Shown here: piece by piece, positions 820 through 23,794 of the stretch
Numbering within the stretch: the stretch's first letter is position 1
Layout: each line of letters starts with the position of its first letter
IMG/VR virus record: IMGVR_UViG_3300025141_000025
Location: 96,001-160,000 of that record
Reading direction: 5' to 3' (one strand)
Source of the DNA: a virus
Length of the DNA: 64,000 nucleotides
Notes under the pieces: generated by a model
What the model saw: only the letters and a program-made list of their open reading frames with translations
Told to the model about the DNA's origin: nothing
Database searches by the model: none
Program-made: the position numbers and the translations under genes

Positions 820-871
820 TCGCAACTCCTAAACATAAGTATCTCCAGAAATTGTAGTAAAAAATAATGTT

Positions 872-4793: not shown

Positions 4794-5073
4794 TTTTGCT
4801 ATTTTTATTCATAAAATCAACGCGAAATTTATCAACAACCATTCGAGCATGATGTTCAGCATCCTGTTGAGATCCGAACCTAGAGGTTGGTAAAAGCTTT
4901 TGATCTTTAAAAGAAATATCTAAAAGGCATGTGCCATTGTCTTGAGGATAATATTCAATTTCAAAATCTTGAAATGAATCCCATGTGTTTGGATCTGGAT
5001 CTATTGTATGGTAATTTCTACCAATCTCTTCACGTATTATTTCGTGAATTATTTCTCGTAATACACCGCTCAT
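4786..5073 (-). CDS. hypothetical protein with LRExI-type leader
   Basis: MSGVLREIIHEIIREE; overlap-coupled. Confidence 0.7.
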   Translation of the reverse strand: MSGVLREIIHEIIREEIGRNYHTIDPDPNTWDSFQDFEIEYYPQDNGTCLLDISFKDQKLLPTSRFGSQQDAEHHARMVVDKFRVDFMNKNSKTI

Positions 5074-5522: not shown

Positions 5523-5754
5523 TATTTTCCTCCATTATAATTCTTTTAAGAATCATTTCTATCAATTCATCGGTACTTTCGTTATTTTCATACGGGCCCT
5601 CAATTGCAGCAATTTGCCCTTGCGCATTTTTTTTGGATGTGTGACAAGCTCGATGTTTTTTACCTTTCTTGTCCGTATAAGTTAAAGACCAATTTCCTTT
5701 ATCACCATCACTTTGCTTACATGGGTTTTTTAGCTTGTTAATCCTATAAGGCAT
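5515..5754 (-). CDS. hypothetical protein
   Basis: 79-aa ORF overlapping both neighbours. Confidence 0.65.
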   Translation of the reverse strand: MPYRINKLKNPCKQSDGDKGNWSLTYTDKKGKKHRACHTSKKNAQGQIAAIEGPYENNESTDELIEMILKRIIMEENNG

Positions 5755-8663: not shown

Positions 8664-10769
8664 TTATTCGCTAGGAGGCATACAAATTTCATCTAATATT
8701 TCCATGAGATAATTGTACATTTCGACCGTGTTGTTACTTAGCGGATAGTATTTTCCACCACATGAATTGGCAATTTCATCCCATTCCCACTGTTCATTAA
8801 CTGAAAATGTGTATGTTTTTAATTGTGGTGTTGCCTGACAGGTGCCAATCACATCCGCCGGACTGAGTTGCGGACTCAAATAACTTTGAGGTGCCTCGTC
8901 ACTAAAAACGATAATAACACGATCTGCCCCGGGTCTCCAGCTTAGTTTAAATTGATCTTTGGTAGGAACTGATTCTCCGACCCAGTTATTCCATGGGGTT
9001 ATTGCGAGATCTATGGGGGTATTTCCGGAAATATTTTGAAGTGAAAGGTAAATAGCGTCTAGCAGCATTTCGCTACCTGTGTTCATCCCAGTATTTCCTA
9101 AACCTGCAAAATCCCCCAGAAAATCAGGAAACGAAGAAATATCAGAAATCATGTATAATCTTTCTTCAAAATCGCCAGGTGCCTCTCTAGGACCAACAAT
9201 AAGTCCCCAGTGAAGTTTGTCTTGTAAGGAATAATGTCCAGCAAACTGATTTAAGGCAGTTAACACGGCACTAATTTCATCGCCCATAGACCCTGACCAA
9301 TCAATGATAAAAAGAATGTCAGTCTCAGGAACCTCTTTACCCCAGTCAACCATGCCGTCACAGTCATCATCCAGACCATTACATTCTTCATCCTGTGGAA
9401 CGACCTCATCCATACACATACCAGCCAAGAAATTGTCTTGGTCATCATACCCACCCCAAACACCGGTGAGGCATGTCATCATTCCAGGTTCGCATATTCC
9501 TACATTTAATGTTCCCTCTGGGCCCGTGTAACAACCAACAAATAAATCCTCATCAATTAACTGATTACAATTATCATCAAAATTATTACATTCTTCTTCT
9601 TGCAGGGGCATACCAACAAGAGAGTCGCAAAGTGGATCAGACCCGGGTGGGTCAGCTAGCCAATGGCATGCAGCAAAGCATTCCGTCGTTGTTATCTCTA
9701 GGCATGCAGGATCTACACATTCACATGTTTTGAAGCCTTGACCACAAAGTAATGGTGGTTCAGCACATGGAAAAAGAGATCCCACATCCTGTATTGTACA
9801 AAGACATTCAATTCCATCATCGATCTGCCCGTTACAGTCGTTATCTAGACCATCACAAATCTCTGGTGATGGTTGTTGTGCTGTACAACTAGCCCATACA
9901 CCGTTGGTACAAACTTCAACCCCACTACCACATGATGTTGTGCATACCTTGACCAAATCCTCGTCGGTATCTCCATCACAATCGTTATCTAGGCCATCAC
10001 ATACCTCAGCTGGGACAGGCCCACACTCGTTACAAACGTTTGTCTGAAATTCATCAATTTCACCATCACAATCGTTATCTAGATAATCGCAGATTTCCTC
10101 TTGAGGTTCCGGGCCGAAGCACACCTCCTCGCCGTCAACACACACGGCATTACCGGCGCCACAGATTGTTTCGCATGCCATGACACCCAAATCTTCGTCC
10201 ACCAAGCCATCACAGTCGTTGTCCAGACCATCACATTGTTCAGGATTACAGGGTTGACATTCTGAATGATATAATTGCCCTTTGTCACATGTAACCTGTT
10301 GTTTTCCAACAGTCCCGTCGTCCATCTCACACCATTGCCAACCATAATCCAGGCTCTGAGCCATGGGTGAGCATTCGTATGCCTCGGTACATTCACCCAT
10401 GAATATAATTTCTGGTGGCGGGCAGTCAGGATCATGACCATACATGCATGGTTCATTATCATCATTGCAAATATCAACAGTAACTTCTTTTTTGTGATAT
10501 GTAGGCTGTCCAAATTCAGGAGGACAGAACCATTGCTGTGATTGACAACATTCAGGATAACAGCTACACCAACCAGAATCCGAAACACTAATTTGAAGGC
10601 AAGGATCTGGTGGGGCTACATCAACATCATTGTGTAGTGTGTCTAGTTCTTCTCGAGGCATTGGATAAATTGGTGTATCCGAATTTTCTACACCATCATT
10701 TTTATCCGAACATCCAAGTGGGTATGTAAAAAAAACTAGAAATAGTAAAGGTATTATCTTCGCCTTCAT
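8664..10769 (-). CDS. lipoprotein with myxobacterial-type Cys-rich repeats (CDGLDNDCDG) and a C-terminal vWA domain
   Basis: Signal peptide ending LGC; about 6 ExCD/NxxDxDCD/NGxxDE repeats; MIDAS-like DWSGSM and VIIVFSDE. Confidence 0.85.
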   Translation of the reverse strand: MKAKIIPLLFLVFFTYPLGCSDKNDGVENSDTPIYPMPREELDTLHNDVDVAPPDPCLQISVSDSGWCSCYPECCQSQQWFCPPEFGQPTYHKKEVTVDICNDDNEPCMYGHDPDCPPPEIIFMGECTEAYECSPMAQSLDYGWQWCEMDDGTVGKQQVTCDKGQLYHSECQPCNPEQCDGLDNDCDGLVDEDLGVMACETICGAGNAVCVDGEEVCFGPEPQEEICDYLDNDCDGEIDEFQTNVCNECGPVPAEVCDGLDNDCDGDTDEDLVKVCTTSCGSGVEVCTNGVWASCTAQQPSPEICDGLDNDCNGQIDDGIECLCTIQDVGSLFPCAEPPLLCGQGFKTCECVDPACLEITTTECFAACHWLADPPGSDPLCDSLVGMPLQEEECNNFDDNCNQLIDEDLFVGCYTGPEGTLNVGICEPGMMTCLTGVWGGYDDQDNFLAGMCMDEVVPQDEECNGLDDDCDGMVDWGKEVPETDILFIIDWSGSMGDEISAVLTALNQFAGHYSLQDKLHWGLIVGPREAPGDFEERLYMISDISSFPDFLGDFAGLGNTGMNTGSEMLLDAIYLSLQNISGNTPIDLAITPWNNWVGESVPTKDQFKLSWRPGADRVIIVFSDEAPQSYLSPQLSPADVIGTCQATPQLKTYTFSVNEQWEWDEIANSCGGKYYPLSNNTVEMYNYLMEILDEICMPPSE

Positions 10770-10822: not shown

Positions 10823-11476
10823 TTACAGGTTAGCCTCAAGTAGCCGTAATAAGACAGCCTCAGTGATGTCTGCAATTTTGCTTTGTTGTAAAGCTATGTC
10901 ATCTTTTGAGGGACTTCCCGTACCCCAGTCAGGCAACGAGTTATCAGTCATACATGCACTAATATTAATTTTTTTTGAACCCTGCACACCGCCTCCGGTG
11001 TATAAAATTCCTACATGTCCCTTGTCAGGATACACAAATAAATCTGTTCCAGCGGCATTGGCTATTTGACATGCCTGTTTTAAAGGAATGGCATCGTCCA
11101 TACCACCGGCAATAGTAACAGATCCTCCGGGTAAAGTTGGAATGGGAGCGCTGGTCCATCCTCGCAAAGCAGCTGGAGCCATATAGGTAATCGGTGGAAT
11201 GGCCGCGGGCATGTATTCGCTTTGCATTGCCCTGTTCAGCGCCGCGGCGCCACGGGAATAAGCAAAAATTCGTTCAGGTCGTTCAGCTGCAATTTTTTTA
11301 GCAATGGCATCAGCTTCTTCATCAGTGACTGGTCCACTTTTTCCTATTTCTATTCCGCCGTATCCAAGCCTGGCTTCAAGATCGTCCTCTGACATACCGG
11401 CGCCATGAAGTCCTAAGGGAACTTCTAACAAACATTGTCTAATAAGATTGGTAAGATCGCTGCGTGTGATAATCAT
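10823..11476 (-). CDS. alpha/beta-hydrolase-like protein with divergent KITK leader
   Basis: AYSRGA elbow, GGMDD, GH; N-terminal MIITRSDLTNLIRQCLLE. Confidence 0.55.
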   Translation of the reverse strand: MIITRSDLTNLIRQCLLEVPLGLHGAGMSEDDLEARLGYGGIEIGKSGPVTDEEADAIAKKIAAERPERIFAYSRGAAALNRAMQSEYMPAAIPPITYMAPAALRGWTSAPIPTLPGGSVTIAGGMDDAIPLKQACQIANAAGTDLFVYPDKGHVGILYTGGGVQGSKKINISACMTDNSLPDWGTGSPSKDDIALQQSKIADITEAVLLRLLEANL

Positions 11477-11724
11477 CTTACAAAATCTTTTTTAAGCGCC
11501 TCTATAGCTTCGCTCAACGCATCTTCAAATTTTGTAAATGCCTCTTTGCTAATCGACACTGAGCCAGGTTCTATCATTGCAACATCATCATACAAAACAT
11601 CATAAAGGTAATTTTTATCAAAAACTCCAAGTGGTGCAGCGTTACCACTTTCATCGTTCTTACTGGAAAACATTGATGATCGTTCTAAAATAATTTCTCT
11701 AATCATGTTTCTGGAAATTTTCAT
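11473..11724 (-). CDS. KITK-leader protein
   Basis: MKISRNMIREIILE; shares GVFDKxYLxD with 20910..21230. Confidence 0.75.
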   Translation of the reverse strand: MKISRNMIREIILERSSMFSSKNDESGNAAPLGVFDKNYLYDVLYDDVAMIEPGSVSISKEAFTKFEDALSEAIEALKKDFVR

Positions 11725-11741
11725 ATTTTTATTTTATCCAA

Positions 11742-12011
11742 TTATTTGAAAATTTTTTCCTTGGCTGTGTTAAACAATTGCGGCAAAAAAGACTTTTTTA
11801 ATCGCAGCAGTCTTTCAAACCTCACACGTTTTCTTGCATCTGTGTAAAGTGTTGTAGGTCGTCTAATCTCGCCATCAATGATTTGTTCACTAAAGTCGTA
11901 AAATTTAGATTTACCACTTGATTTAGGGGGTGCAGCATACGCAACGTTGAAAAAAATAAAAAAGAACAGCAAAAGAATTATAAATGAAATTCTTTTGTTG
12001 CTGATTTTCAT
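11742..12011 (-). CDS. CglF/GltF-like adventurous gliding motility protein homolog
   Basis: Signal peptide followed by YDFSEQIIDGEIRRP...ARKRVRFERLLRLKKSF, matching my recollection of the myxobacterial CglF pattern DFEDDxIEGxLxKP...ARKKVxxxxLIRxRxxF. Confidence 0.7.
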   Translation of the reverse strand: MKISNKRISFIILLLFFFIFFNVAYAAPPKSSGKSKFYDFSEQIIDGEIRRPTTLYTDARKRVRFERLLRLKKSFLPQLFNTAKEKIFK

Positions 12012-12277
12012 GATTTATTTTTCACTTTTTTGACGATATTCTTAATTCTACGTCGTAGAAGTCTTTCACCCAAAACTGGACCTCCTACATCTAATGTCTC
12101 TGGTCTTTTTGTGGTCTCTTCACCACCGGCAGCTTTTGAATGATCAATATCCAATTCCAAATTACCTGCCTCGGGACACCCTGCCCATACATTTTCAATA
12201 GGTTCAACTTCTTCCGGGTGATCAGAATCAAGCATTTCTTTAATTAGTTTTCTGAGTTGTCGTTTTGTAATTTTCAC
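12008..12277 (-). CDS. KITK-leader protein
   Basis: MKITKRQLRKLIKE. Confidence 0.8.
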   Translation of the reverse strand: MKITKRQLRKLIKEMLDSDHPEEVEPIENVWAGCPEAGNLELDIDHSKAAGGEETTKRPETLDVGGPVLGERLLRRRIKNIVKKVKNKS

Positions 12278-12759
12278 TAGTCAATACTCCTATCGATTGC
12301 TTTATATACAGGATACATCTCATCCCATGTCGCCCAGTCAATATCTCCGGATTCTACGGCAGCTTCTAATACATCTGGAATATTAGAGGTGAAGCCGCCC
12401 TTAGGATGAGCGCCCGGTCCTTTGGGTTTGGAAAAAGGATCAACATACATGTTGCCGTCTCTTCCCTCGAAACCTTTATAAAAACCAATGTCGATAAGAT
12501 ACTGGTGCACCTTCTGTGTCAGTTCCTGCTTAGATCCTTTCCATTTTTTTCCTGGTCGGCTTGAAGATTGCTGCGATGGTTGCGGCGCTCTGGATGGTGT
12601 GGTTTGACCCGTGGAGCCGGCTTCAAAATCCCTAACAAGCTGCTCATACTCGGCTCGAGTAATCGTGCCGGCCCTATAGTCTTTGTAATAATCTGCAGGC
12701 TCTTCGAGTAAAAGTGATTCTCGAATAATTCTTCTAAGTTGTCTCTTTGTGATTTTCAT
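12277..12759 (-). CDS. KITK-leader protein
   Basis: MKITKRQLRRIIRESLLLE. Confidence 0.8.
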   Translation of the reverse strand: MKITKRQLRRIIRESLLLEEPADYYKDYRAGTITRAEYEQLVRDFEAGSTGQTTPSRAPQPSQQSSSRPGKKWKGSKQELTQKVHQYLIDIGFYKGFEGRDGNMYVDPFSKPKGPGAHPKGGFTSNIPDVLEAAVESGDIDWATWDEMYPVYKAIDRSID

Positions 12760-13098
12760 TTATAACTCTTCTCGATATCTTGGATCAATTGCTATTAACC
12801 TTTTATAGTCGTGATCTGTTTCATATCCGTTTGCTTGTAATATTGCTTCAATATCCTGTGCTCGCACACCCATTTTCCTTTCTAGTCCCATTAGTTCGCC
12901 ATTGGTGGCGATGTGATACTGCCCCGGAAAATCAGTCGATAAATAAAACTTAAAACCTTTAAGGTCTAGTTCAGTACCAAGCAATTGCTCTATTTTATCT
13001 AGGTTTGGATCACTATCCCACTTATCATAGTCACTGTATTTTACCTTTTCGATCTCTTCTTTGATGATTCTCTTTAGTTGTCGTTTTGTAATTTTCAT
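12760..13098 (-). CDS. KITK-leader protein
   Basis: MKITKRQLKRIIKEE. Confidence 0.8.
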   Translation of the reverse strand: MKITKRQLKRIIKEEIEKVKYSDYDKWDSDPNLDKIEQLLGTELDLKGFKFYLSTDFPGQYHIATNGELMGLERKMGVRAQDIEAILQANGYETDHDYKRLIAIDPRYREEL

Positions 13099-13100
13099 AA

Positions 13101-13316
13101 TCAAAATCCTAAGACTGCACCTTCATCGTGATGTCGATCTTCTAGTTCATCGGCTAATTCCCGGAGCGCTTCTGCACGCTCAAGATCAGAGCGAAGCGTA
13201 GTGCCCACTAACTGATCAATCAATCTCCATTGTTCTTCACGATTGTCGCCGAACATGTTATCCTTATCCCGGGCTTCCTTAATGATTCTTCTGAGCTGTC
13301 GTTTTGTAATTTTCAT
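13101..13316 (-). CDS. KITK-leader protein
   Basis: MKITKRQLRRIIKE. Confidence 0.8.
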   Translation of the reverse strand: MKITKRQLRRIIKEARDKDNMFGDNREEQWRLIDQLVGTTLRSDLERAEALRELADELEDRHHDEGAVLGF

Positions 13317-13564
13317 TAGCTTATTATTCCTTTTATTTTTTCGAGGTAATCATCTGCAATTTCTGGCTTCACTCCCATGCTCTTGTTCATGAAAGCTGTC
13401 TTTATTATATCCTGTATTTGTAGCAATTGCTGGTGAGATGTAGGTGCCATCGAATCTTTCCATTCTTCATATGCACCGGGATTGTTCGGATCCATACGTT
13501 CGGAAATTATTTTAGCGCTCTCTTCTTTGATGATTCGTCTTAGTTGTCGTTTTGTAATTTTCAT
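13316..13564 (-). CDS. KITK-leader protein
   Basis: MKITKRQLRRIIKEE; start at the TAATG overlap. Confidence 0.8.
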   Translation of the reverse strand: MKITKRQLRRIIKEESAKIISERMDPNNPGAYEEWKDSMAPTSHQQLLQIQDIIKTAFMNKSMGVKPEIADDYLEKIKGIIS

Positions 13565-13989
13565 TATGGACATACCCATTTTCCCATTCTTTGTTGCCAA
13601 TACGGCTCAGTAGCCTCTCCGGTCCTTCGATCTTTGCAACCCATTTGTTCTCCAGTGGGTTTTTTATCCCGCCTGCTGGTATCTACACGGCCTGACCGGT
13701 CTATGCCGGGAGCCCAGTATTCTTCTAAATCATCTTCTTTAAGGAGGTCGGTTCCATGTGAAAGATCATCGATTAGGTTTTCATAGTCCTCAACAGGTAC
13801 CTCATGGCCTAGGTCATCCATAAAATCGTCATATAAAAGTGATTTAATTGCGCCTGCTCCACCAGTGGCTAAAGCAGGATCAGCATGATAAGATTTTGCC
13901 CTATCGGTTAAATAAGTTATGATCTCATCGTTGGACGCAACCATGGCTTCTCTGATTATTCTTCTTAGTTGTCGTTTTGTGATTTTCAT
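13564..13989 (-). CDS. KITK-leader protein
   Basis: MKITKRQLRRIIRE. Confidence 0.8.
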   Translation of the reverse strand: MKITKRQLRRIIREAMVASNDEIITYLTDRAKSYHADPALATGGAGAIKSLLYDDFMDDLGHEVPVEDYENLIDDLSHGTDLLKEDDLEEYWAPGIDRSGRVDTSRRDKKPTGEQMGCKDRRTGEATEPYWQQRMGKWVCP

Positions 13990-14276
13990 CGCTTCCAGTC
14001 ATCCCCCATGAGCTCATCGATCTCGCGCCAGCTTGCCTTCGTGATAAGGTACTTGTATCGAGGGTAAAACTTGCCATCGATATAGTCACGAATCGCATTC
14101 TCACCCTGTAGGACGACCTCGGTGGGGACAACGTAGCTAATCCCTTCACCCTCAGTGTGCTCATGGCCATACCACTCAACCTCAACTGAGGTCACTGGTG
14201 TACCCACAGGTAAACCAGTCATGCGGTCTATTTCTTCTCGGATGATTCTTCTTAGTTGCCGTTTGGTGATCTTCAT
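13986..14276 (-). CDS. KITK-leader protein
   Basis: MKITKRQLRRIIREE. Confidence 0.8.
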   Translation of the reverse strand: MKITKRQLRRIIREEIDRMTGLPVGTPVTSVEVEWYGHEHTEGEGISYVVPTEVVLQGENAIRDYIDGKFYPRYKYLITKASWREIDELMGDDWKR

Positions 14277-14536
14277 GTCTGGTTCCCTATATCAATTGCT
14301 CTTTGTAGCGCGATCTCATATGCGTCGCCACGTTGTCCGCCGAGCCCGGTAATCTTCTCAAGCGCTGTATCAGCTATTTCGGCCGGGGTTGCATTTCTGT
14401 AACCGGGTTCATGTGCTATATGGTCGACCCACATGTGAACCTCTCCGGTCAAACCGGCACCAGGTACTATTCCGCCATCCTTCCCGACAAACGCTTCTTT
14501 GATAATTCTTCGGAGTTGTCGTTTTGTGATTTTCAT
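14273..14536 (-). CDS. KITK-leader protein
   Basis: MKITKRQLRRIIKE. Confidence 0.8.
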   Translation of the reverse strand: MKITKRQLRRIIKEAFVGKDGGIVPGAGLTGEVHMWVDHIAHEPGYRNATPAEIADTALEKITGLGGQRGDAYEIALQRAIDIGNQT

Positions 14537-14958
14537 GAATAATACTCCTCAAAAGCACTTGTTCCATCATCTTCACCAGCGTACATTTCATCGGGATCTT
14601 TTTCCTCAACTTCCTCAACCTGCATTCCATTTTGTTTTGCATAAAGCTGAATGAGTTTATCGACATCTACACCATAGTAATCAGGGAATACGTCTGAATC
14701 CCATCTCTCCAAACCCCCTTGTACACCTTCTGCATCAGCTTTAAGCATTGCAGCGAGACCTTGCTCTGAAGTAAACCCTTGTACCCCTTCATCCAGAAGT
14801 GATCTTACCATCTCACCGAGACTGATCCATTCGCCGCCTTCATCTTCAACACTAAACCCGCCGTATGGAAGGCGCTTGACATAAAGCGTACCTTCGGACA
14901 TTACGTTCGAAATTTCTTCTTTGATAATTCGTCTGAGTTGTCTCTTTGTGATTTTCAT
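14533..14958 (-). CDS. KITK-leader protein
   Basis: MKITKRQLRRIIKEE. Confidence 0.8.
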   Translation of the reverse strand: MKITKRQLRRIIKEEISNVMSEGTLYVKRLPYGGFSVEDEGGEWISLGEMVRSLLDEGVQGFTSEQGLAAMLKADAEGVQGGLERWDSDVFPDYYGVDVDKLIQLYAKQNGMQVEEVEEKDPDEMYAGEDDGTSAFEEYYS

Positions 14959-14966
14959 TTTTTATC

Positions 14967-15599
14967 TCAATCGTACATTGGGGGTATGTGCTTGACTGGC
15001 TTGCGCTTCTTCCTAAGAGTCGCGCCACCCTTCTCTAACACCTTTATAATCTTGTCTACTGTCGTCCCTGACTGTTTCGCCCATTGTTCATCAACGACAA
15101 AACTTGAACGCCCAAGCGGCATCGTACCCCATGGGGTCTCGTCGTCTTCGACCATAAACGCCACAACTTTACCACCCCTGCGAATGGGTTGGTAAGTCAA
15201 GTATTTTACCTCGCGAGGCTCGACAGCACCGTAGCTATCACCTCCGATGGCCTTGAGTTCTTTTTTGTCAGGAGAAGCACCAACTCGTTTTTGATGATCT
15301 TTATCCAGTGCCATCGAGATTGCCAACCGGATGTTTTCGAGATCAGGATATGGTGTAACCCCTAAGTCTGCCAACGTACCTCGGTCGTCGTCGTAGAAAG
15401 CGTCGGCCTGATCTAGACCGTATTCATCGATAAAGAGTTGTGCCACTTTTTGATGATCAGCATGGCTCATTTTTGAAGGGTCTTCAGGGAGGGCATCAAC
15501 AAGTTTTTTCTCCCATGCATCCAACTCGGCCTGGCGTTCTTTCCAGGATTTCATCTGTTCTTTGATGATTTTTCTAAGTTGTCGTTTTGTAACTCTCAT
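14967..15599 (-). CDS. KITK-leader protein
   Basis: MRVTKRQLRKIIKE. Confidence 0.8.
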   Translation of the reverse strand: MRVTKRQLRKIIKEQMKSWKERQAELDAWEKKLVDALPEDPSKMSHADHQKVAQLFIDEYGLDQADAFYDDDRGTLADLGVTPYPDLENIRLAISMALDKDHQKRVGASPDKKELKAIGGDSYGAVEPREVKYLTYQPIRRGGKVVAFMVEDDETPWGTMPLGRSSFVVDEQWAKQSGTTVDKIIKVLEKGGATLRKKRKPVKHIPPMYD

Positions 15600-15600
15600 A

Positions 15601-15981
15601 TTACATTCTCCACTTGCAGTTTCTAGCTAACCTGTCACATTTAATAAGTGCTTCTTTAATTAGTCTTTCTAACCCAAACAAATTCGCTGTTTTCCAATCA
15701 TCAAAATCTTCTAATTGTGAAGCAGATAGTTTTTTATCTGCACACCTCAATAAATGAGCCGCTTCGTAATACTTTGACTCGGCCAGCGCAAACATTTTGT
15801 GTTTGTGATGTTGTTCGGCTTCACTCATGATTGCTGATGCTTTATTATACAATAAAGCGGCGCAGTCTGCTGTAGGACCACATGTCACGATCGTCGTGCA
15901 CATTTTAGTTTTATAATCAATGGTACTTGTGGCACAAGAAGTACAAAGTAAAAATAGCATTACCGTGGCAAGAAATCTCAT
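15601..15981 (-). CDS. putative lipoprotein, helical
   Basis: MRFLATVMLFLLCTSC signal/lipobox. Confidence 0.6.
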   Translation of the reverse strand: MRFLATVMLFLLCTSCATSTIDYKTKMCTTIVTCGPTADCAALLYNKASAIMSEAEQHHKHKMFALAESKYYEAAHLLRCADKKLSASQLEDFDDWKTANLFGLERLIKEALIKCDRLARNCKWRM

Positions 15982-15983
15982 TT

Positions 15984-16283
15984 TTAACTGCCAAGCATCT
16001 CGTCTAAACCAAGCATAGATTTGCACATAAAATAAGAATAATGTAATCTTTCGAAAGTTTGCCAAACATATTCAACACTCACAGGTCTCACGGACATCTT
16101 TAACCAGTAATCCGGATTAATGTCGACTGCGACGTCCTCAGCCTCTCTGATGTTTTCTGCCCTGATAAATTGTACATGGCTTTTAAATTCCCTGTGGGGA
16201 GTTTTTTCATATAATTCAAAAATACTGCCTTCCATTTCTTCATTATTTTTGAACAGATCCATCTGTATTGCTAGATTATTCAT
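15984..16283 (-). CDS. hypothetical protein
   Basis: 99-aa ORF with SD GAGGAG. Confidence 0.65.
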   Translation of the reverse strand: MNNLAIQMDLFKNNEEMEGSIFELYEKTPHREFKSHVQFIRAENIREAEDVAVDINPDYWLKMSVRPVSVEYVWQTFERLHYSYFMCKSMLGLDEMLGS

Positions 16284-16292
16284 TTTCGTATG

Positions 16293-16445
16293 TCACTCCT
16301 CTTTATTCCACGGTGCGTCTGGGTCTTCCATTATCGATACCATACTTTTTTCGAATCCGCGGGTCGCTATCCAAGCACCCAAGACCATTCCCACAGCCGT
16401 ACAGCCAAGAAATGTAAGTGCCACCAGTATGGAATCCCAGCTCAT
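16293..16445 (-). CDS. small membrane protein (50 aa, not in ORF track)
   Basis: MSWDSILVALTFLGCTAVGMVLGAWIATRG...; fills the gap in the operon. Confidence 0.55.
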   Translation of the reverse strand: MSWDSILVALTFLGCTAVGMVLGAWIATRGFEKSMVSIMEDPDAPWNKEE

Positions 16446-16447
16446 CT

Positions 16448-16630
16448 CTACTTAATTCTCACATGCGATTTCAAAATTTCGTCTAAGCTTTTTACAATTG
16501 ATGACAATGTGTAGGCAGTGTCTTGTGCTCGCATCATTGCCAATGGATTTTCTTTTCCCTCAATAGTTTGAAAAGATTTTATGGTAAATTCACGAAGCTG
16601 TATTAACATTTGAATTTCTTTTTGTGTCAT
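16448..16630 (-). CDS. hypothetical protein
   Basis: 60-aa ORF, TAATG-coupled. Confidence 0.6.
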   Translation of the reverse strand: MTQKEIQMLIQLREFTIKSFQTIEGKENPLAMMRAQDTAYTLSSIVKSLDEILKSHVRIK

Positions 16631-17313
16631 TATTCATTAGCCCAATCAGACGCGCCTAACAGGTATTGTCCTAAATCACTCGCATCTAATTTATCCAAAC
16701 TCAATCTAAATGAATTACCGAATTCTATGGTGATCATATCTCCCACAACAGAAACCCTTGTTGCATAAGGCGTGTTATTGTCTAGGTCCCTAAGCGTAAC
16801 TCTTCGTTCCCACTGAGCCCCGGGCTTTGTAATTGGACTTTCATCAATTCGAGCTTTCTCTTCCTTGATGATTCTTCTAAGCTGTCGCTTTGAAATTTTC
16901 GTTCTGCCTTCTTTAAAGCTGCGCTGGTGAATCTCTTCATCGCTTAAGACACCACCAGCATCGTACTCTTTTCGTGCAATCTTGAGTTCTCTACTGAGGT
17001 CATCATGATCTATACCAAATTCATCAGCCAGAGTCCGGTGATTCCACCCCTGCGTCGCCGGATCATCTCGATCGCGGGAAACAAAATATGTTGCCATGAC
17101 GGAAGATGATGCAGGTGTTATGTGACCGTATTCTTTTGCCCATTTCTTATAGTGATTAATTAATTTTTCCGCCGTCTGATCTCCACCCATGGGAGCATCG
17201 CCGGTCGGATTATCGCGATACCGTTCGTAGTCTCCAGGAACAGTTGGGTCATAAGGTCGGCCACCATACTCTTTTATGATTCTTCTTAGTTGTTGCTTTG
17301 TGATTTTCATCAT
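16630..17313 (-). CDS. KITK-leader protein with a second internal tag
   Basis: MKITKQQLRRIIKE plus internal FKEGRTKISKRQLRRIIKEE. Confidence 0.8.
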   Translation of the reverse strand: MMKITKQQLRRIIKEYGGRPYDPTVPGDYERYRDNPTGDAPMGGDQTAEKLINHYKKWAKEYGHITPASSSVMATYFVSRDRDDPATQGWNHRTLADEFGIDHDDLSRELKIARKEYDAGGVLSDEEIHQRSFKEGRTKISKRQLRRIIKEEKARIDESPITKPGAQWERRVTLRDLDNNTPYATRVSVVGDMITIEFGNSFRLSLDKLDASDLGQYLLGASDWANE

Positions 17314-17573
17314 CTAGCTCCATGTACCTTTTCAGCCATAAGCCTAAGTGCCTCTTTTCTAATTCCGGGTGAGCGAAACCCACCGCCAATACGTTCGGCT
17401 GAGATTCGGATAAACTCTATTAGCTCATCAGTCTGCATCTCAACCTCAGCTAGAAAATCAGCACGCATTTCATCTTCATCATCAGAAATAGTCCCGTCGG
17501 GATTCATTTCCCTAACAAGGCGAGATTTCTCTTCTTTGATGATTCTTCTCAGCTGTCTTTTTGTTATTTTCAT
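17310..17573 (-). CDS. KITK-leader protein
   Basis: MKITKRQLRRIIKEEKSRLVRE. Confidence 0.8.
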   Translation of the reverse strand: MKITKRQLRRIIKEEKSRLVREMNPDGTISDDEDEMRADFLAEVEMQTDELIEFIRISAERIGGGFRSPGIRKEALRLMAEKVHGAR

Positions 17574-17809
17574 CTTGTCGGTCCTCTTAAATTGTCCTTT
17601 AGTTCTCTAATGATCTTTTCTAACCCACCAACGATACCCATTGCCGTCTCGGGATCCTCTAAATTCCATCCCATACCTGCAGCAAGATCATCAATTGTTG
17701 TCCATACACCTTCGAATGTGTCGATATTGACCTGACCACGATTCTCATTGAGAAGTTTAGTTTTCTCTTCTTTGATGATTCTTCGAAGTTGGCGATCTGT
17801 GATTTTCAA
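17570..17809 (-). CDS. KITK-leader protein
   Basis: MKITDRQLRRIIKEEKTKLLNE (TTG start). Confidence 0.8.
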   Translation of the reverse strand: MKITDRQLRRIIKEEKTKLLNENRGQVNIDTFEGVWTTIDDLAAGMGWNLEDPETAMGIVGGLEKIIRELKDNLRGPTR

Positions 17810-18045
17810 CTTTGGTTCCCTTTTCTTAGTTCACTTGCTACAGTTTCCAATGCATCAGCAAATGTACCTTGAACCGCAGGGTCTGACATATCTACAGTGC
17901 CGGCCATTGCTTCGTCATCGAGCCAACGCCATATACCATCAACTGCATTTTGCCAGAGTCCGCCCTGAACATCTGGTTCGACACGCATGGATTGCGCTGT
18001 TTCTTCCTTGATGATTCTTCTAAGTTGTCGTTTTGTAATTTTCAT
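17806..18045 (-). CDS. KITK-leader protein
   Basis: MKITKRQLRRIIKEE; body resembles 17570..17809. Confidence 0.8.
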   Translation of the reverse strand: MKITKRQLRRIIKEETAQSMRVEPDVQGGLWQNAVDGIWRWLDDEAMAGTVDMSDPAVQGTFADALETVASELRKGNQS

Positions 18046-18152
18046 TTTACGTTACACTTTCCTAAACAGTTACTGCAGCCACAACAGCCACAGCAACAAC
18101 AGCAGTGTGCGGAATTAAATAGGTTCCAAAGGCGGTGAAAAAAAGCTTTCAT
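18042..18152 (-). CDS. Cys-rich micropeptide (36 aa, 10 Cys; not in ORF track)
   Basis: MKAFFHRLWNLFNSAHCCCCCGCCGCSNCLGKCNVK; TAATG overlap upstream and ATGA overlap downstream. Confidence 0.7.
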   Translation of the reverse strand: MKAFFHRLWNLFNSAHCCCCCGCCGCSNCLGKCNVK

Positions 18153-18514
18153 TATGAATAATCTCCATTAATAAGCTTATCAGTAAACTCTTCCATGGTT
18201 TTGTACGCCAATTGCCTAATTCTTCTTGTAAGTTCGTTTTCAAGGTCAATTGCTGCGTCATCCACCTGTGCTTTCCATGCAGTTTTTGCATCGCCGGCCG
18301 TATCACCCATAGCCATCATAGAGGGATCACCCTTGTCAAATGCTTTGACTTCTGCATCGTGCCATTTATCGACAAGTTCACCTACGTCCTTCCAGTCAAC
18401 CCGGGGCCAGTGGTGAGCTCGTCGTTCCAAGCTAGGCATATCATCCTGTTCATCAAGGACTTTGGCCTTCTCTTCTTTGATAATTCTTCTTAGTTGCCTT
18501 TTCGTAATTTTCAT
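18152..18514 (-). CDS. KITK-leader protein
   Basis: MKITKRQLRRIIKEEKAKVLDE. Confidence 0.8.
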   Translation of the reverse strand: MKITKRQLRRIIKEEKAKVLDEQDDMPSLERRAHHWPRVDWKDVGELVDKWHDAEVKAFDKGDPSMMAMGDTAGDAKTAWKAQVDDAAIDLENELTRRIRQLAYKTMEEFTDKLINGDYS

Positions 18515-18954
18515 TTTTTATCCTTAGGGGTTGGCTTTTGTGTTTTTTTGATTTCATAAAATACAATATTAACGAATTCACCACTCTGTCCAAGCTGATC
18601 TAATTTAAGAAACTTGGCAGAGAATATTTCGTCAGATGATGTAGCATTTTGATATTCAACATACATCAGCATTAAAAGTTTAGCACCGGTCATATGTTTT
18701 TCAGACGAATCACCTGGAAATGTTACCATTAAAACATCATTCACACCTAGACAGTTGCTGTGTCTTATTACCTTCGCGACCATTGGAAATCTAAAAGCAG
18801 GTACATCATGCACCTCGACCGGAGAATTACATTTATCTATCACGGCCTGCACAGTCAGGTGATCATAAGATGGAATCACATTTTTAGTTGTAGTGGTACA
18901 AGATCCGCACCCAATCACAAATGTAAGCAATAAAACTGTTAAAATATTCTTCAT
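18511..18954 (-). CDS. putative lipoprotein
   Basis: MKNILTVLLLTFVIGC lipobox. Confidence 0.65.
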   Translation of the reverse strand: MKNILTVLLLTFVIGCGSCTTTTKNVIPSYDHLTVQAVIDKCNSPVEVHDVPAFRFPMVAKVIRHSNCLGVNDVLMVTFPGDSSEKHMTGAKLLMLMYVEYQNATSSDEIFSAKFLKLDQLGQSGEFVNIVFYEIKKTQKPTPKDKK

Positions 18955-18958
18955 TCAA

Positions 18959-20023
18959 TTAACCTTTCATAAGACCAGATAGCTTTTGCCACCGCTCCAA
19001 GATAATTACATCCTCGGGTCGGAGATTATAAGATTCAGTCTTTGTTTTGTTTCCTAGCGCATTACCTATAGCGGTAAGATATTCCAGCGTTTTGTCAGTG
19101 CCCAGTTTTTTAAGGTCAACTTTGGCTATAGTTTTGATATCAGCACTCGGATCATTAAGCATTGTGGCGGCCCACCGATGATGACCATCGAGAATCTCAT
19201 CGTCGAGAGAGGCATATGCTTTAAGGTTACCACCGGAAACACCATTTACTGCCATTCCGAGTGCCTTGGGTAAGAGAATATTAGTTTGTGTGGGTACTGC
19301 TTTTTGTGCTGCCATACCTCCACCCAGCTTAATTTCAATACTGTCATCACTATCTTCACCGTCATTGGCACCAAGTCCAGCAGTCATAAATTCTTCAGCA
19401 CCGGGTGCGTCCATACCAAGAAATGCATTGGGAGCGGGAGCATCGCGCTCAACCAAATAATGTAACCCCTGTTTCCAGGCTGCCTCCTTAAACGGTTCAG
19501 CAATGTCGATATTGTATTTTCCGCCAGGTGTCAAAGCATCAGCAACATCTTTGACATCACCGGTTGCATCTTTCGGCCCGGGCAAGAAAGGCATCTTACT
19601 TTTTGGAAGTCCGCTACCGGGAATTTTTGAACCAACTGCTTCAACCCTTTTAATAAACGTTCCAGTACCCAGTTCTTCCAACCAGTCAGCAACCTTATCC
19701 GGATCTGGTTTGACAACAGTCTCCTCACCATCATCGCCCTTATCGGTAAATTCCATAGCCTTGAAAATAGGCTGTTCAGGATCACGAGTTAAAATTTGAG
19801 CAGCGACCTCTTTCGCATCGGCACCTTTAAAGTTTAACTGGTTGTCAAATGCAGTGCCTTTTGGCTCGCCTACATCAACAACCTCTTTTTCTCCCTCGGC
19901 CGATTCTTCTTTTGTTTCTTCAAAAAGAAATGTTGATAACATTGAGCGTGATGATTTAGGTTTACGGTGCTCAAGTATCACATCATGAATAATTTTTTGA
20001 AGATGTGCCTTTGTGATCTTCAT
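18959..20023 (-). CDS. KITK-leader ParB/Srx-like domain protein
   Basis: MKITKAHLQKIIHD; PTQTNI...ILDGHHRW; C-terminal ERWQKLSGL. Confidence 0.75.
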   Translation of the reverse strand: MKITKAHLQKIIHDVILEHRKPKSSRSMLSTFLFEETKEESAEGEKEVVDVGEPKGTAFDNQLNFKGADAKEVAAQILTRDPEQPIFKAMEFTDKGDDGEETVVKPDPDKVADWLEELGTGTFIKRVEAVGSKIPGSGLPKSKMPFLPGPKDATGDVKDVADALTPGGKYNIDIAEPFKEAAWKQGLHYLVERDAPAPNAFLGMDAPGAEEFMTAGLGANDGEDSDDSIEIKLGGGMAAQKAVPTQTNILLPKALGMAVNGVSGGNLKAYASLDDEILDGHHRWAATMLNDPSADIKTIAKVDLKKLGTDKTLEYLTAIGNALGNKTKTESYNLRPEDVIILERWQKLSGLMKG

Positions 20024-20025
20024 GA

Positions 20026-20433
20026 TTAAATTTCCCCAGAAAGATCGCCCAAGTTTAATTCAGCACTTTCTGATAGGACATCAACTTGAGCTTCTAGCAT
20101 CTCTTGTAAGGCTGCAGCCTGAGCTGCCAATGCCTCAACAATCGGGGCCTTTTCGTTGATTTCTGGTCCACAATTAGTACAATGTTGCGCTGCATTTTGA
20201 ACAGACTCAACAACCAAGTCCAAGGATCTTGCAGCGACCTCCATTTCAGTAAGCATGTCACCGGCTGGATCTTCACTTTCATTTACAAGCTCACCCACAG
20301 CGTCTGCCACATCCACAGCAGGCAGCTCAAGTGCCACAGCCTCAGGCGCAGGTCCATGATCTCCACATGCTTCCTGTAATTTTCGGCGTTCGTTTCTAAT
20401 AATTCTTCTTAGTTGTCGTTTTGTGATTTTCAT
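20026..20433 (-). CDS. KITK-leader protein
   Basis: MKITKRQLRRIIRNERRKLQE. Confidence 0.8.
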   Translation of the reverse strand: MKITKRQLRRIIRNERRKLQEACGDHGPAPEAVALELPAVDVADAVGELVNESEDPAGDMLTEMEVAARSLDLVVESVQNAAQHCTNCGPEINEKAPIVEALAAQAAALQEMLEAQVDVLSESAELNLGDLSGEI

Positions 20434-20523
20434 TTTTTGCTCCTATTTTCATCACATTTATTACAAATAAACTATTTCATCCTTTGAAATAATTTTATAG
20501 TGTTTTTTACCTTTTGATCATTT

Positions 20524-20907
20524 TCAAAAGCTGGCCCCTAAATCAATTTCAATAGATCGATCCTCAGCCCATTGTTCAACATCAAGTGGACCGATAAAAC
20601 CATCCTGCGGTGGCTTACTATCAAGCCATGTTCGATTGGGTGCTCCAGCATGCTGAGCCAGGTCATCCAAATCTTCAAACCCTAACCCTCTTTGGTCTAG
20701 CCATTCACCCCAGCCTTTTTCAAGCTCGGCATCAGTCCTTTGTTCACCTTCGCCTCCAGGTGCGTAGTAATCTTCCTCACCTGGAGGTGCAGAAAAATCT
20801 CGATCATCTGAGTGCCATAGGTCTCTAACTTGGCGATCCACACCCGGCATACCTTCGCTAAGTGACTCCTTGATAATCTTTCTTAGTTGTCGGCAGGTAA
20901 GTTTCAT
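20524..20907 (-). CDS. KITK-leader protein
   Basis: MKLTCRQLRKIIKESLSE. Confidence 0.8.
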   Translation of the reverse strand: MKLTCRQLRKIIKESLSEGMPGVDRQVRDLWHSDDRDFSAPPGEEDYYAPGGEGEQRTDAELEKGWGEWLDQRGLGFEDLDDLAQHAGAPNRTWLDSKPPQDGFIGPLDVEQWAEDRSIEIDLGASF

Positions 20908-20909
20908 GA

Positions 20910-21230
20910 TTAGCCCTCCACTAAATCCATAACAACGGAATTAGTTGCACTGTTAATTGTTCGTTCAATTAGCTTGGCCTCATCAGGATCGAGGTAATCA
21001 GCGCCAATAGAATTCAAATAATCCATAATTTCTTCTCTAATAATGTCTGACAGATAACTCTTGTCAAAGACACCGTGATCTGGTTTAGGGTGAAGTGCTT
21101 GCATTCTAGCTCGAAAGTCATCATCCATCTTTGCTGCAGCCATACCCATATCAGCTGGAGTCATCTGCTCCATTAGTCTAGCCTTCTCTTCTTTGATGAT
21201 GCACCTGAGTTGTCGTTTGGTGATTTTCAT
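20910..21230 (-). CDS. KITK-leader protein
   Basis: MKITKRQLRCIIKEEKARLME. Confidence 0.8.
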   Translation of the reverse strand: MKITKRQLRCIIKEEKARLMEQMTPADMGMAAAKMDDDFRARMQALHPKPDHGVFDKSYLSDIIREEIMDYLNSIGADYLDPDEAKLIERTINSATNSVVMDLVEG

Positions 21231-21235
21231 GATTG

Positions 21236-21508
21236 TTAACGCTCCTGCAGCGACTGTATGACAAAGTTGATTACTTGGCGGGTTGTCAAAGGGCCATCTT
21301 GATAGTCTAAGTCGACCAGCCCTGAGGCATTTTCAATGGCCTCGTCCACCGCGACCATTAAATCCTCAAGGACAGATTCACCGGGAGCATATTCACCTTG
21401 GATACCCTGATTAAACTTATAGTCCGGCCGGCGGGTAGGCTGTTCATTCATAAGTCTAGCCTTCTCTTCCTTGATGATTCTTTTTAGCTGTCTTTTTGTG
21501 ATTTTCAT
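21236..21508 (-). CDS. KITK-leader protein
   Basis: MKITKRQLKRIIKEEKARLMNE (start corrected). Confidence 0.8.
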   Translation of the reverse strand: MKITKRQLKRIIKEEKARLMNEQPTRRPDYKFNQGIQGEYAPGESVLEDLMVAVDEAIENASGLVDLDYQDGPLTTRQVINFVIQSLQER

Positions 21509-21509
21509 T

Positions 21510-22121
21510 TTAATCCCCTGTGTATCCCACATGTAGTCTTTTGTCTTCCAACGCAGCAATTACCATTTTTTGATCGGAATATTCTCCACTACTTCGATCA
21601 AGAGTCTTCAGAACTCTGTAAGCTGCTTCGATTTCCTCTTGAACTTCCGAGACTGCCTTCTGCTTGCTCTTGTAATAATCAGCAATCCCTGCGTCTTCTT
21701 TAAAGAGTTTGGCTTTCTCTTCTTTAATGATTCTTCTGAGTTGTCTTTTTGAGATTTTCATTTTTCCTTCTCTAATGACTTCGAGCGATCCGTTTGGAAA
21801 ACCCGTCTTAAATCCTAGTTGGTTAAGATAGCCTTGAATCTCATATGTTCTATCGCTACTTCCAAACCCTTCCATGCTGTCTTCATATCGCCAAGCTAAC
21901 TCGTCCGCAAGGTCTATCGCCAATATAGCATGCCTCGTCTCAACGCTCTGAAACTCTTCTGGGGTCAATAGTTGCTCAGCTGCCCGTGTATATTCATCTG
22001 GATACATTATGTAATCGACACCTGGCTCTGGACCTTGTGCAGTCATAGAACCTCTCTCTAAAAGATTCCGCTTTTCTTTTCTAATAATTTTTCTTAGATT
22101 TCTTTTTGTGATTTTCATCAA
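21510..22121 (-). CDS. KITK-leader protein with a second internal tag
   Basis: MKITKRNLRKIIRKE plus internal IREGKMKISKRQLRRIIKEE. Confidence 0.8.
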   Translation of the reverse strand: MMKITKRNLRKIIRKEKRNLLERGSMTAQGPEPGVDYIMYPDEYTRAAEQLLTPEEFQSVETRHAILAIDLADELAWRYEDSMEGFGSSDRTYEIQGYLNQLGFKTGFPNGSLEVIREGKMKISKRQLRRIIKEEKAKLFKEDAGIADYYKSKQKAVSEVQEEIEAAYRVLKTLDRSSGEYSDQKMVIAALEDKRLHVGYTGD

Positions 22122-22423
22122 ACGCCTCGCCTCTTCATGTCATGTGCTAAATCTGACATCTCTTCGCCGGCATCCATCAAAAGTTCTTCCAGTTTGTCAT
22201 ACCTGGACGTACCGAATTCGTTACCGTCATCAAGCCACTCCGGAGGTACAGACTTTATCTTTCGATACTCAAAGAACATTTTGTCCAATGCTGATCTCAT
22301 GGCCTCAACCTTATCAACCTCATCCTGGTTGAGGGTCAGTTGTCGGACATCTTTCTCAGCTCGGATCTCATTTACAAGTTTGCCCTTAATAATTCTTTTT
22401 AGTTGTTGTTTAGTAATTTTCAT
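22118..22423 (-). CDS. KITK-leader protein
   Basis: MKITKQQLKRIIKGKLVNE (start corrected). Confidence 0.8.
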   Translation of the reverse strand: MKITKQQLKRIIKGKLVNEIRAEKDVRQLTLNQDEVDKVEAMRSALDKMFFEYRKIKSVPPEWLDDGNEFGTSRYDKLEELLMDAGEEMSDLAHDMKRRGV

Positions 22424-22719
22424 GAATTTTCCTTCGTGCCAAAGATCCAATTATAAATGCTAGCCGGAATTTCTTCACGCGGAGGGTACTCTAAAGTTCC
22501 AATAAACAACCTTAAATTTTGTGATCCCGTTATTGATCCCGTCTTGATTTCTTCAAGTACCTGGTCCCTGACATATTCCAACGCAACGGCATCATCACGA
22601 TATAACATTTTCATGGTGGCATCTGTTTCTGATAACAGGTGACTACGAATAAACCCTATTTTTCTGTTGATAGCCGCGATGCCGTTTTCTAATTCTTGGC
22701 GTGTAATTCGACTACCCAT
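22420..22719 (-). CDS. hypothetical protein
   Basis: Likely start MGSRITRQEL (SD GGAG). Confidence 0.6.
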   Translation of the reverse strand: MGSRITRQELENGIAAINRKIGFIRSHLLSETDATMKMLYRDDAVALEYVRDQVLEEIKTGSITGSQNLRLFIGTLEYPPREEIPASIYNWIFGTKENS

Positions 22720-23236
22720 TGTTTTTCTCCAACATGTGACGAACCATGGTCGTAATGTCCCCACGGGTGATTCGTAAAATTTGTGATTTCGATCGAGCTG
22801 ATTCGGCGATGCGGCGGCCCATACCGGATTGTCTAGGCACATCTTGAAAATCAAATTCACCAGGCATCAGCTCTTCAAGTTCTCGCCTTTCTTTTTCGAT
22901 GGCAGCCTGTTGCTCGACATCCAGTTTCTCCTGTTCGATCATGGCGTCGTAATAGTCATCCAAGTCTTTAATGGCTGTGTTGTATTCTTCCACAGTCTTG
23001 TATGGTCTGTGGCGAGGTCGAAACCCGTGGAGCTCTTTAAAATAATCAGAGTAAGTCTGCCCTAGAACTGATAGAGCCAAATCCTTACCTGTTACGACGC
23101 CCTGCCTCTCCCAAAAGGCTTGGTCTGTCACGTACCCGGCGCCGGTTTGAGCATTTATTTTTTCTGCTTCTTCCTGCGCGGTAGGTGCGAATTGCATGGC
23201 TTCGCGAATTATTCGTTTAAGTTGAGTTCTTTTCAC
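22712..23236 (-). CDS. KITK-like leader protein
   Basis: MKRTQLKRIIRE; SD GAGGAG. Confidence 0.75.
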   Translation of the reverse strand: MKRTQLKRIIREAMQFAPTAQEEAEKINAQTGAGYVTDQAFWERQGVVTGKDLALSVLGQTYSDYFKELHGFRPRHRPYKTVEEYNTAIKDLDDYYDAMIEQEKLDVEQQAAIEKERRELEELMPGEFDFQDVPRQSGMGRRIAESARSKSQILRITRGDITTMVRHMLEKNNG

Positions 23237-23723: not shown

Positions 23724-23794
23724 TTTTCGCCTGTTTTTTTCCCTGTCGGGGTCGAATCCTGCCAAAGGTAGGTACATCTAAATATCCCTTTTCA

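Follow-up and report, generated by a model that had tools for sequence, protein, structure and literature searches.

The window analysed here is a stretch of 64,000 nucleotides from a virus (IMG/VR record IMGVR_UViG_3300025141_000025, positions 96,001 to 160,000 of that record). In the list of open reading frames (ORFs) of this window, the region from 10.8 to 23.2 kb is a series of short abutting ORFs on a single strand, the minus strand, and neighbouring genes in it begin with the same basic peptide, called the leader below. A profile (A1) built on the first 20 residues of the leader proteins found 26 significant copies in the window, with the consensus MKITKRQLRRIIKE(E). These comprise 23 gene starts between 11724 and 22423, two copies internal to genes (16902 and 21761) and one outlying copy at 58908. 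The genes starting at 11476 (MIITRSDLTNLIRQCLLE) and 23236 (VKRTQLKRIIRE) carry degenerate leaders that fall under the profile's threshold. An earlier reading of the DNA, made from its letters and referred to as the sequence-only reading, had listed these starts and claimed that the genes share an N-terminal leader; each start is indeed that of a minus-strand ORF with the leader or a variant of it, and the profile returns the 23 array starts and 58908. Two more copies had escaped that reading, one C-terminal in ORF 5744-7237 (KMSKKQLRKIIRE) and one N-proximal in ORF 7487-8611. The genes concerned are given below with their lengths in amino acids (aa) and, in brackets, the basis of the call.

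5744-7237, minus strand: 497-aa protein with swapped tags, N-terminal RWCKLAGLL-T-E and C-terminal leader copy KMSKKQLRKIIRE
7487-8611, minus strand: ParB/Srx-like paralogue, 374 aa, with N-proximal leader-like helix RELQRLILQEE and C-terminal V-L-E|RWQKLAGILKS
10823-11476, minus strand: the array's last gene, 217 aa, degenerate leader MIITRSDLTNLIRQCLLE, weak serine-hydrolase match under the Pfam cut-off
11473-11724, minus strand: leader gene, 83 aa, variant leader MKISRNMIREIILE (profile, 27.8 bits)
12008-12277, minus strand: leader gene, 89 aa, GTG start (ORF and profile)
12277-12759, minus strand: leader gene, 160 aa (ORF and profile)
12760-13098, minus strand: leader gene, 112 aa (ORF and profile)
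13101-13316, minus strand: leader gene, 71 aa (ORF and profile)
13316-13564, minus strand: leader gene, 82 aa (ORF and profile)
13564-13989, minus strand: leader gene, 141 aa (ORF and profile)
13986-14276, minus strand: leader gene, 96 aa (ORF and profile)
14273-14536, minus strand: leader gene, 87 aa (ORF and profile)
14533-14958, minus strand: leader gene, 141 aa, about 70 full-length metagenome homologues (homologue search and AlphaFold)
14967-15599, minus strand: leader gene, 210 aa, MRVTKRQLRKIIKE (ORF and profile)
16630-17310, minus strand: two-module leader protein, 226 aa, internal copy 16902 after F-K-E-G (ORF and profile)
17310-17573, minus strand: leader gene, 87 aa (ORF and profile)
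17570-17809, minus strand: leader gene, 79 aa, TTG start (ORF and profile)
17806-18045, minus strand: leader gene, 79 aa (ORF and profile)
18152-18514, minus strand: leader gene, 120 aa (ORF and profile)
18959-20023, minus strand: two-tag protein, 354 aa, with N-terminal leader MKITKAHLQKIIHD, weak ParB/Srx-like body and C-terminal I-L-E|RWQKLSGLMKG
20026-20433, minus strand: leader gene, 135 aa, position 14 is Asn, L-Q-E at 19-21 (ORF and profile)
20524-20907, minus strand: leader gene, 127 aa, with a homologue (79%) in the syntenic array of phage G002, described below (ORF and profile)
20910-21230, minus strand: leader gene, 106 aa (ORF and profile)
21236-21508, minus strand: leader gene, 90 aa (ORF and profile)
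21510-22118, minus strand: two-module leader protein, 202 aa, internal copy 21761 after I-R-E-G-K (ORF and profile)
22118-22423, minus strand: leader gene, 101 aa, position 14 is Gly (ORF and profile)
22712-23236, minus strand: the array's first gene, 174 aa, GTG start, degenerate leader VKRTQLKRIIRE sub-threshold (ORF)
57877-58908, minus strand: outlying leader gene, 343 aa, basic body, Zeta-toxin/AAA_33 kinase-like domain (profile)

A few non-leader genes interrupt the array; they include lipoprotein-like ORFs at 15601-16065 and 18511-18954 and, at 11742-12011, an ORF with a signal peptide. Between two leader genes lies a 36-aa ORF (18042-18152, minus strand) with a dense cysteine core, MKAFFHRLWNLFNSAHCCCCCGCCGCSNCLGKCNVK, whose translation was confirmed. 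As to the assembly, 96% of the stretch is also present in a second marine metagenome from a different study, and the cassette junctions are mostly bridged by independent contigs, with a few at identical leader words left unbridged among the contig pieces listed.

The conservation of the leader was read from 416 unique leader proteins of related contigs, with residue counts taken over 415. Position 1 is M, V or L, the residue of the start codon, in 97% of the proteins, Leu8 is kept in 97%, Ile11 in 93%, Ile12 in 95% (396/415) and Glu14 in 97% (405/415). Position 14 is Asp only once, against a Glu:Asp ratio of about 1:1 in the bodies that follow, and position 15 is E, A or S. The I-x-E with which the leader had been said to end is its most conserved part. 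In about half of the leader proteins a continuation K-A-R/K-L-L-x-E extends the 14-residue core to about 22 residues, and the second L-x-E noticed in the window recurs widely, since [LI]xE with its Glu at positions 21-25 occurs in 47% of 370 leader proteins from related contigs, compared to about 6.5% expected. Most leaders carry a charge of +4 to +6, with +1 to +3 in degenerate and variant copies, and the median leader protein is 102 aa long, leader included. The sequence-only reading had called the leader amphipathic; a helix is predicted by AlphaFold over residues 5-19/20, but its hydrophobic moment is not above that of shuffled sequences, so that only the helical half of the description stands. 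Codons for Ile (ATT/ATC/ATA), Thr, Arg (five codons) and Leu (four codons) vary between copies at constant residues, and because this variation is synonymous we take selection to act on the peptide and not on a DNA repeat.

The bodies behind the leaders had been described as mostly unrelated and often acidic, and they are: all 25 array bodies have isoelectric points between 4.0 and 5.9, and after removal of the leader no body-to-body BLAST similarity was left except via internal leader copies. Searches of the bodies against Pfam, PHROGs and PADLOC gave nearly no matches (none of note in PADLOC), leaving most of them orphans. In the 141-aa family represented by 14533-14958, compared across its roughly 70 homologues, the leader hardly varies, the body shows 40-60% identity, and an insert of variable length lies between the tag and the body, which begins after M-S-E|G. 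AlphaFold models this leader as a detached helix (predicted local distance difference test, pLDDT, 60-69) beside a globular body (pLDDT 85-97) for which no structural match was found in PDB or BFVD. Elsewhere, too, AlphaFold places the tags as helices apart from the bodies, and sequences and models together suggest that tag and body are separable units. The ParB/Srx-like family has an invariant DGHHRW loop. Its model finds only ParB/Srx proteins as top structural matches, with Z of only 3.0-4.1 over residues 232-320; Foldseek gives E of about 3, the Atlas lead to ParBc_2 stands at 0.88, and there was no Pfam match. ORF 5744-7237 contains a HAD-like DxDxT motif, read from its sequence, and a weak match to a PHROG polynucleotide kinase. 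An anti-defence role for any of this cargo would be speculation.

We asked which genomes carry the leader. A degenerate DNA pattern of it matched 65 stretches in IMG/VR, many of them on contigs of 130-293 kb. Five large leader-bearing contigs, here G001 to G005, hold 39, 42, 30, 17 and 10 copies, respectively, grouped in arrays. The sequence-only reading had proposed co-occurrence with a gp21-like prohead protease as a check, and both Peptidase_S77 (gp21) and T4 Gp23 are present in all five, the Gp23 being T4-type and about 640 aa long. One matching contig bears the label GVMAG; a giant-virus origin was rejected, as the capsid of nucleocytoplasmic large DNA viruses is absent from all five large contigs. 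G002 is a complete phage of 284 kb in IMG/VR (rated 100%) that is syntenic with the window, with identities of 80% for a helicase, 76-78% for a ClpP-like protein, 62% for a lipoprotein with MopE and von Willebrand factor A (VWA) features and 85% for a KaiC-like ATPase. The leader array occupies the same relative position in both. Its flanking genes are 50-85% identical, but for only about 7 of the 25 cassettes does the syntenic array contain a homologue; cassette turnover is rapid.

The nearest cultured relatives by capsid are Flavobacterium phage immuto, Microcystis phage Mel-JY01 and Rhodothermus phage RM378 (39-49% identity), about 8000 relatives of this gp23 were found in metagenomes, and the leader-bearing clade appears to be a deep branch of the T4 superfamily. 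A diverged array of the same type, with leaders such as MRLSERKLRRIVKEEISRVLRE and MKLTQTKLQKLIKEELKE, lies in the 484-kb huge phage LR756508, which belongs to the same gp23 lineage. Had the leader been common in cellular genomes, a viral packaging signal would have been hard to argue for, a point raised by the sequence-only reading itself; it is almost absent from them, with four stretches in 185,579 GTDB species genomes. All four are on contigs of metagenome-assembled genomes (MAGs), two of them on one contig, and a cellular origin was rejected on this basis. The contig with two of them, NHDW01000006.1 (305,838 bp; G006:C5), assigned to the MAG 'Methylococcaceae bacterium TMED69', has 30 leader copies in two arrays and is probably a misbinned phage genome of the leader clade. 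The leader is restricted to contigs of T4-type phages. In the literature, exact strings of the leader and of RWQKLAG matched no paper, and a topic search returned no description of such arrays.

The head modules of G001 and G002 offer a link of the leader to the head. Their order is terminase, portal, an unassigned gene, gp21, several small genes, a bS21 homologue (in G001), scaffold and gp23. The gene directly after gp21 starts with MSKISKSKLKTLIKECLVEILTE in G001 and MAKITKRMLKGIVKECLVEILSE in G002, and the second gene after gp21 is also leader-like in both (..LLRKIVLEEKRRMQEVLE). The A1 profile detects the G002 gene after gp21 at E=2.6e-4, and no PHROG or Pfam family matched the head-module leader proteins. 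The scaffolds themselves have net charges of -54 to -125, and since they are so extremely acidic a basic docking helix would suit them. Separately, a bS21 homologue lies between protease and scaffold in several members of the clade (L077 11597-11821 in G001; L086 6143-6370 in Mel-JY01), and an unannotated ORF of LR756508 (L085 6804-7043) resembles bS21 by eye. LR756508 also has, downstream of its capsid gene (L085 14787-19477), five to six paralogues of about 250-280 aa, each starting with a sequence of the type M(R/K)LK(E/N)(I/V)LLE that ends in L-x-E; their assignment to Alt-like ADP-ribosyltransferases was dropped, Pfam giving no family.

The T4 protease gp21 cleaves after L/I-x-E, its processing being blocked when P1 is Asp (PMC9026906). 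In the clade the propeptide boundary of gp23 keeps hydrophobic-x-E|A (QVLRE|AN, QIVSE|AN; FLTE|AE in T4), and the scaffold N-terminus reads L(L)KxAIAE|A, for example LLKQAIAE|AK, compared to MLKEQLIAE|AQ in T4 gp22. Since both sites keep a T4-like rule, the specificity of gp21 is probably conserved in the clade, and the I12-x-E14 of the leader fits this rule as a putative cut site. Internal copies of the leader point the same way. Among the 21 found in the loci examined, 17 are preceded within 2-5 residues by E-G/S (9 of 170 in-frame controls), and 13 by hydrophobic-x-E-G/S/A (3 of 170 controls, with a background of about 3%). The linker Ser before internal copies is encoded by TCN as well as AGY codons.

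A second peptide, RW/RMxKLA(G/D)I, is the conserved C-terminus of the scaffold in five clade members: RWQKLAGIIK in immuto, RMKKLAGIVK in Mel-JY01, RWAVLAGINNKNN in G001, RWAVLAGIGK in G002 and RMQKLADIS in LR756508. This scaffold terminus recurs at the termini of non-scaffold proteins. In the window it ends ORFs 7487-8611 and 18959-20023 and begins ORF 5744-7237, always with hydrophobic-x-E on the side of the body. The motif is rare, with five occurrences in 654,000 six-frame residues scanned, three of which are terminal in these window proteins. Within the ParB/Srx-like family 31 of 48 members have the peptide, and hydrophobic-x-E directly precedes it in 31 of 31.

In T4, IPI, IPII and IPIII, all internal proteins, carry an N-terminal capsid-targeting sequence (CTS) that is removed by the gp21 prohead protease (PMC3012670, PMC9026906), and the sequence-only reading had proposed a larger system of this kind for the array. 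With moderate confidence, we suggest that large T4-related phages of an abundant marine clade use the leader as a propeptide for docking on the prohead core, and that its cargo would be trimmed and delivered together with the DNA. With its charge of mostly +4 to +6 and its hydrophobic residues I3, L8, I11, I12 and L19/20, the basic helix would bind the very acidic gp22-like scaffold or core while the prohead is being built, and the tagged protein would thereby end up inside. A gp21-family protease would then cleave after Glu14 (I-x-E), often with a further cut behind a Glu at about position 22 (L-x-E), releasing a small acidic protein that may remain in the head and would probably exit along with the DNA upon infection. 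In two-module proteins the cut would fall at the hydrophobic-x-E-G/S linker preceding the internal leader. RWxKLAGI may be a second docking peptide, copied from the scaffold C-terminus and doing the same job on a few larger enzymes, with hydrophobic-x-E in between. More tentatively, the two peptides could form a two-address loading code, a core-docking basic leader and a scaffold-mimicking terminal peptide each with a protease site, by which tens of orphan proteins, exchanged rapidly, and a few enzymes would be packed. As for the parallel with T4 itself, which is drawn by comparison, the co-occurrence with gp21 and gp23, the I-x-E and the leaders in the head module speak for it, and the resemblance to the CTS and to the T4 cargo does not hold.

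Several observations weigh against a capsid role. The leader has no sequence similarity to the T4 CTS (MKTYQEFIAE), with which it shares, as judged by eye, no more than the initial M-K and the final I-x-E, and the acidic cargo differs from the basic, DNA-associated mature internal proteins of T4. The leader profile finds no copy in T4 or Mel-JY01, and the array has no match among the INPHARED cultured phages by megablast or tblastn. Glu14 is followed by another Glu in 62% of copies, a place taken by Ala, Ser or Gly in the known T4 sites compared. A recurring L/I-x-E would also be expected of a longer helix with a hydrophobic stripe, and the hydrophobic moment, as said, shows no excess over shuffles. 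The E-G/S linkers overlap purine runs resembling Shine-Dalgarno sequences and position 1 of the internal copies is encoded by ATG or GTG in 16 of 21, so part of the linker signal may come from internal translation starts. The evidence on gp21, gp22-like scaffold and gp23 stems from related contigs and not from the window's own partial contig of 168,485 bp, and the arrays lie about 100 kb away from the head module. Regions of early host takeover typically contain dense arrays of small orphan genes as well. Finally, the T4 late promoter TATAAATA is absent, and sigma-70-like sites are not enriched, being at the level of shuffled sequence.

With regard to expression signals, the word ATATTTAG is a weak lead for an alternative promoter. 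A copy stands immediately before the gene that heads the array:

23778-23785, minus strand: candidate promoter word ATATTTAG, a weak lead

The word occurs at chance frequency, three times on the coding strand against about two expected, with two of the copies directly before genes. It is also found upstream of one head gene of G002, and in G001 and G002 close variants lie upstream of several further head genes. Terminators were at shuffle level. Among the public runs listed, those containing the stretch are DNA runs only, with no RNA run.

The alternative that survives best, although we regard it as unlikely, is that the leader is a common helix of non-packaged early or middle host-takeover proteins, recruiting them to one intracellular partner, for instance a hub protein of host or phage, nucleic acid or a membrane, or oligomerising them, with no role in the capsid. 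Small acidic orphan genes packed tightly in a hyperplastic region of fast turnover, a strongly basic helix unlike the T4 CTS, arrays remote from the head module and a late promoter that was not found are what such proteins would lead one to expect. This leaves unexplained why Glu14 is near-absolute together with Ile12, why internal copies follow a hydrophobic-x-E-G/S linker, why genes lying between gp21 and the scaffold have leader-like N-termini, and why some of the same proteins bear the scaffold's C-terminal peptide behind hydrophobic-x-E.

Quite improbable, in our estimate, is that a chaperone or an unfoldase-protease recognises the leader as a tag, for help in folding or for timed degradation. 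The window encodes DnaK, DnaJ and a ClpP-like protein, and the leader's core, LRRII with K/R on either side, fits the classic DnaK-binding pattern of a hydrophobic core with basic flanks. What weakens this proposal is the absence of phage DnaK from the complete G002, the contig richest in leader copies (42), as well as from the 92%-complete G004, whereas gp21 and gp23 are present in five of five; a link of the leader to phage Hsp70 was dropped, co-occurrence giving it no support. A close ClpP-like homologue is confined to G002 and G004, and a chaperone tag would not need the invariant Glu14. Hardly tenable is selection mainly at the level of nucleic acid, with a recombination repeat at cassette junctions or a translation-initiation region of which the peptide is a by-product: De Bruijn (short-word) contigs of public runs do break and branch at leader copies, identical words are common to cassettes and phages, cassettes turn over quickly and internal copies retain start codons and Shine-Dalgarno-like runs, but synonymous sites vary freely (three Ile, four Leu and five Arg codons) while the residues are fixed, the 484-kb phage keeps the peptide and its residue types on codons that differ considerably, and recombination at the leader more probably results from the repeat than explains what the repeat is for.

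Other genes of the window deserve mention. A conserved 95-aa framework gene (4786-5073, minus strand) starts with a leader-like helix, MSGVLREIIHEIIREEIG (its G002 counterpart has MKKVLLATIREIILEEIG), and its product may be another core-docking protein. DnaJ is encoded at 48141-49193 and DnaK, a full-length Hsp70, at 49270-51132, both on the minus strand; phage DnaK was also found in G001, G003 and LR756508. A ClpP-family protein (2911-3588, minus strand) with a 90-residue N-terminal extension, named head maturation protease in PHROGs, is probably an extra protease, because the lineage already has one of the gp21 type. Directly downstream of the array, a 701-aa lipoprotein (8664-10769, minus strand) has a weak VWA match and contains at least four Cys-rich metal-binding repeats of the MopE type. 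The first ORF of the window (1-825, minus strand) has a VWA-like DISGSM motif, seen by eye, and at 26756-27838 and 29287-30522 (minus strand) there are a MoxR-type AAA_5 ATPase and a DUF2201 metallopeptidase/VWA pair. It is unusual for a phage to carry stress or assembly-type modules like these VWA-like, MoxR and DUF2201 genes.

If the docking reading is right, 5-8% of a 280-kb genome would be head-loaded cargo, ten times as many kinds as in T4, and the cargo of thousands of uncultured marine phages would become readable from metagenomes. The array would then represent a natural plug-and-play cargo system made from short address peptides and protease sites, a large unexplored pool of proteins acting in the first seconds of infection (and thus candidates for counter-defence and host takeover), and a source of a new pair of loading tags for engineered protein delivery via phage heads. 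Should it prove wrong, there remains a very large, virus-only family of modular proteins marked by the leader, and the helix that they share calls for an explanation.

Among known systems, polymorphic toxins, including the MuF-toxin fusions of phages, join a constant N-terminal delivery module to a variable C-terminal payload. The leader proteins resemble them in having a constant putative address, interchangeable payloads and rapid payload turnover; unlike them, the address is only 14-22 residues long, no toxin domains were recognised in the bodies and there are no adjacent immunity genes. Terminal docking peptides are also known from HK97-fold shells, both as the C-terminal coat-binding region of scaffolding proteins and as the cargo-loading peptides of encapsulins. 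RWxKLAGI, found at the very C-terminal end of the scaffold, resembles the latter in that it reappears at the ends of enzymes; it has no sequence relation to encapsulin peptides, and binding of RWxKLAGI to gp23 would be the counterpart of their attachment to the shell.

Closer are the inner-body and ejection proteins of phiKZ, 201phi2-1 and SPN3US, whose propeptides are cut at S/A-x-E by a gp21-related protease (PMC9026906, PMC5694885). These phages, too, are large, with many head-loaded proteins, a three-residue motif cut after Glu and redundant propeptide sites (features that for the leader are predicted). They differ in that no single common leader has been described for them and in that their proteins form paralogous families rather than unrelated cassettes, and they belong to a different phage lineage.

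The T4 system remains the nearest. Here as there, a short N-terminal candidate propeptide (10-19 residues in systems of the T4 type) is common to otherwise unrelated proteins, which in T4 are non-essential, and ends in (L/I)-x-E with Glu rather than Asp at P1; the lineage, as seen in related contigs, has gp21, a gp22-like scaffold and gp23; and the cargo, of about 8-20 kDa, varies between relatives. T-even phages have variable sets of diverse internal proteins with only the CTS in common (PMC3012670, PMC9026906), and the turnover of cassettes between the window and G002 resembles this variability. T4 Alt is trimmed at both ends, and gp21 processes Alt, gp67, gp68 and gp22 at both termini or at several internal sites (PMC9026906), to which the predicted cuts at both ends of the ParB/Srx-like proteins and at the linkers of the two-module proteins may correspond. 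A short stretch of T4 gp67, TIDLIKEEKIA, recalls RRIIKEEKAK of the leader by eye. The leader would be an analogue of the CTS rather than a copy of it. Unlike the CTS of 10 residues, the leader is basic, opposite in charge, and extends over 14-22 residues with two nested putative sites, its tags are also found internally and C-terminally, and 10-42 genes per genome are tagged compared to 3-4 in T4. Taken together, these comparisons suggest a system with features beyond those described for T4, namely tens of cargo genes per genome, nested and internal processing sites and a second, scaffold-derived address.

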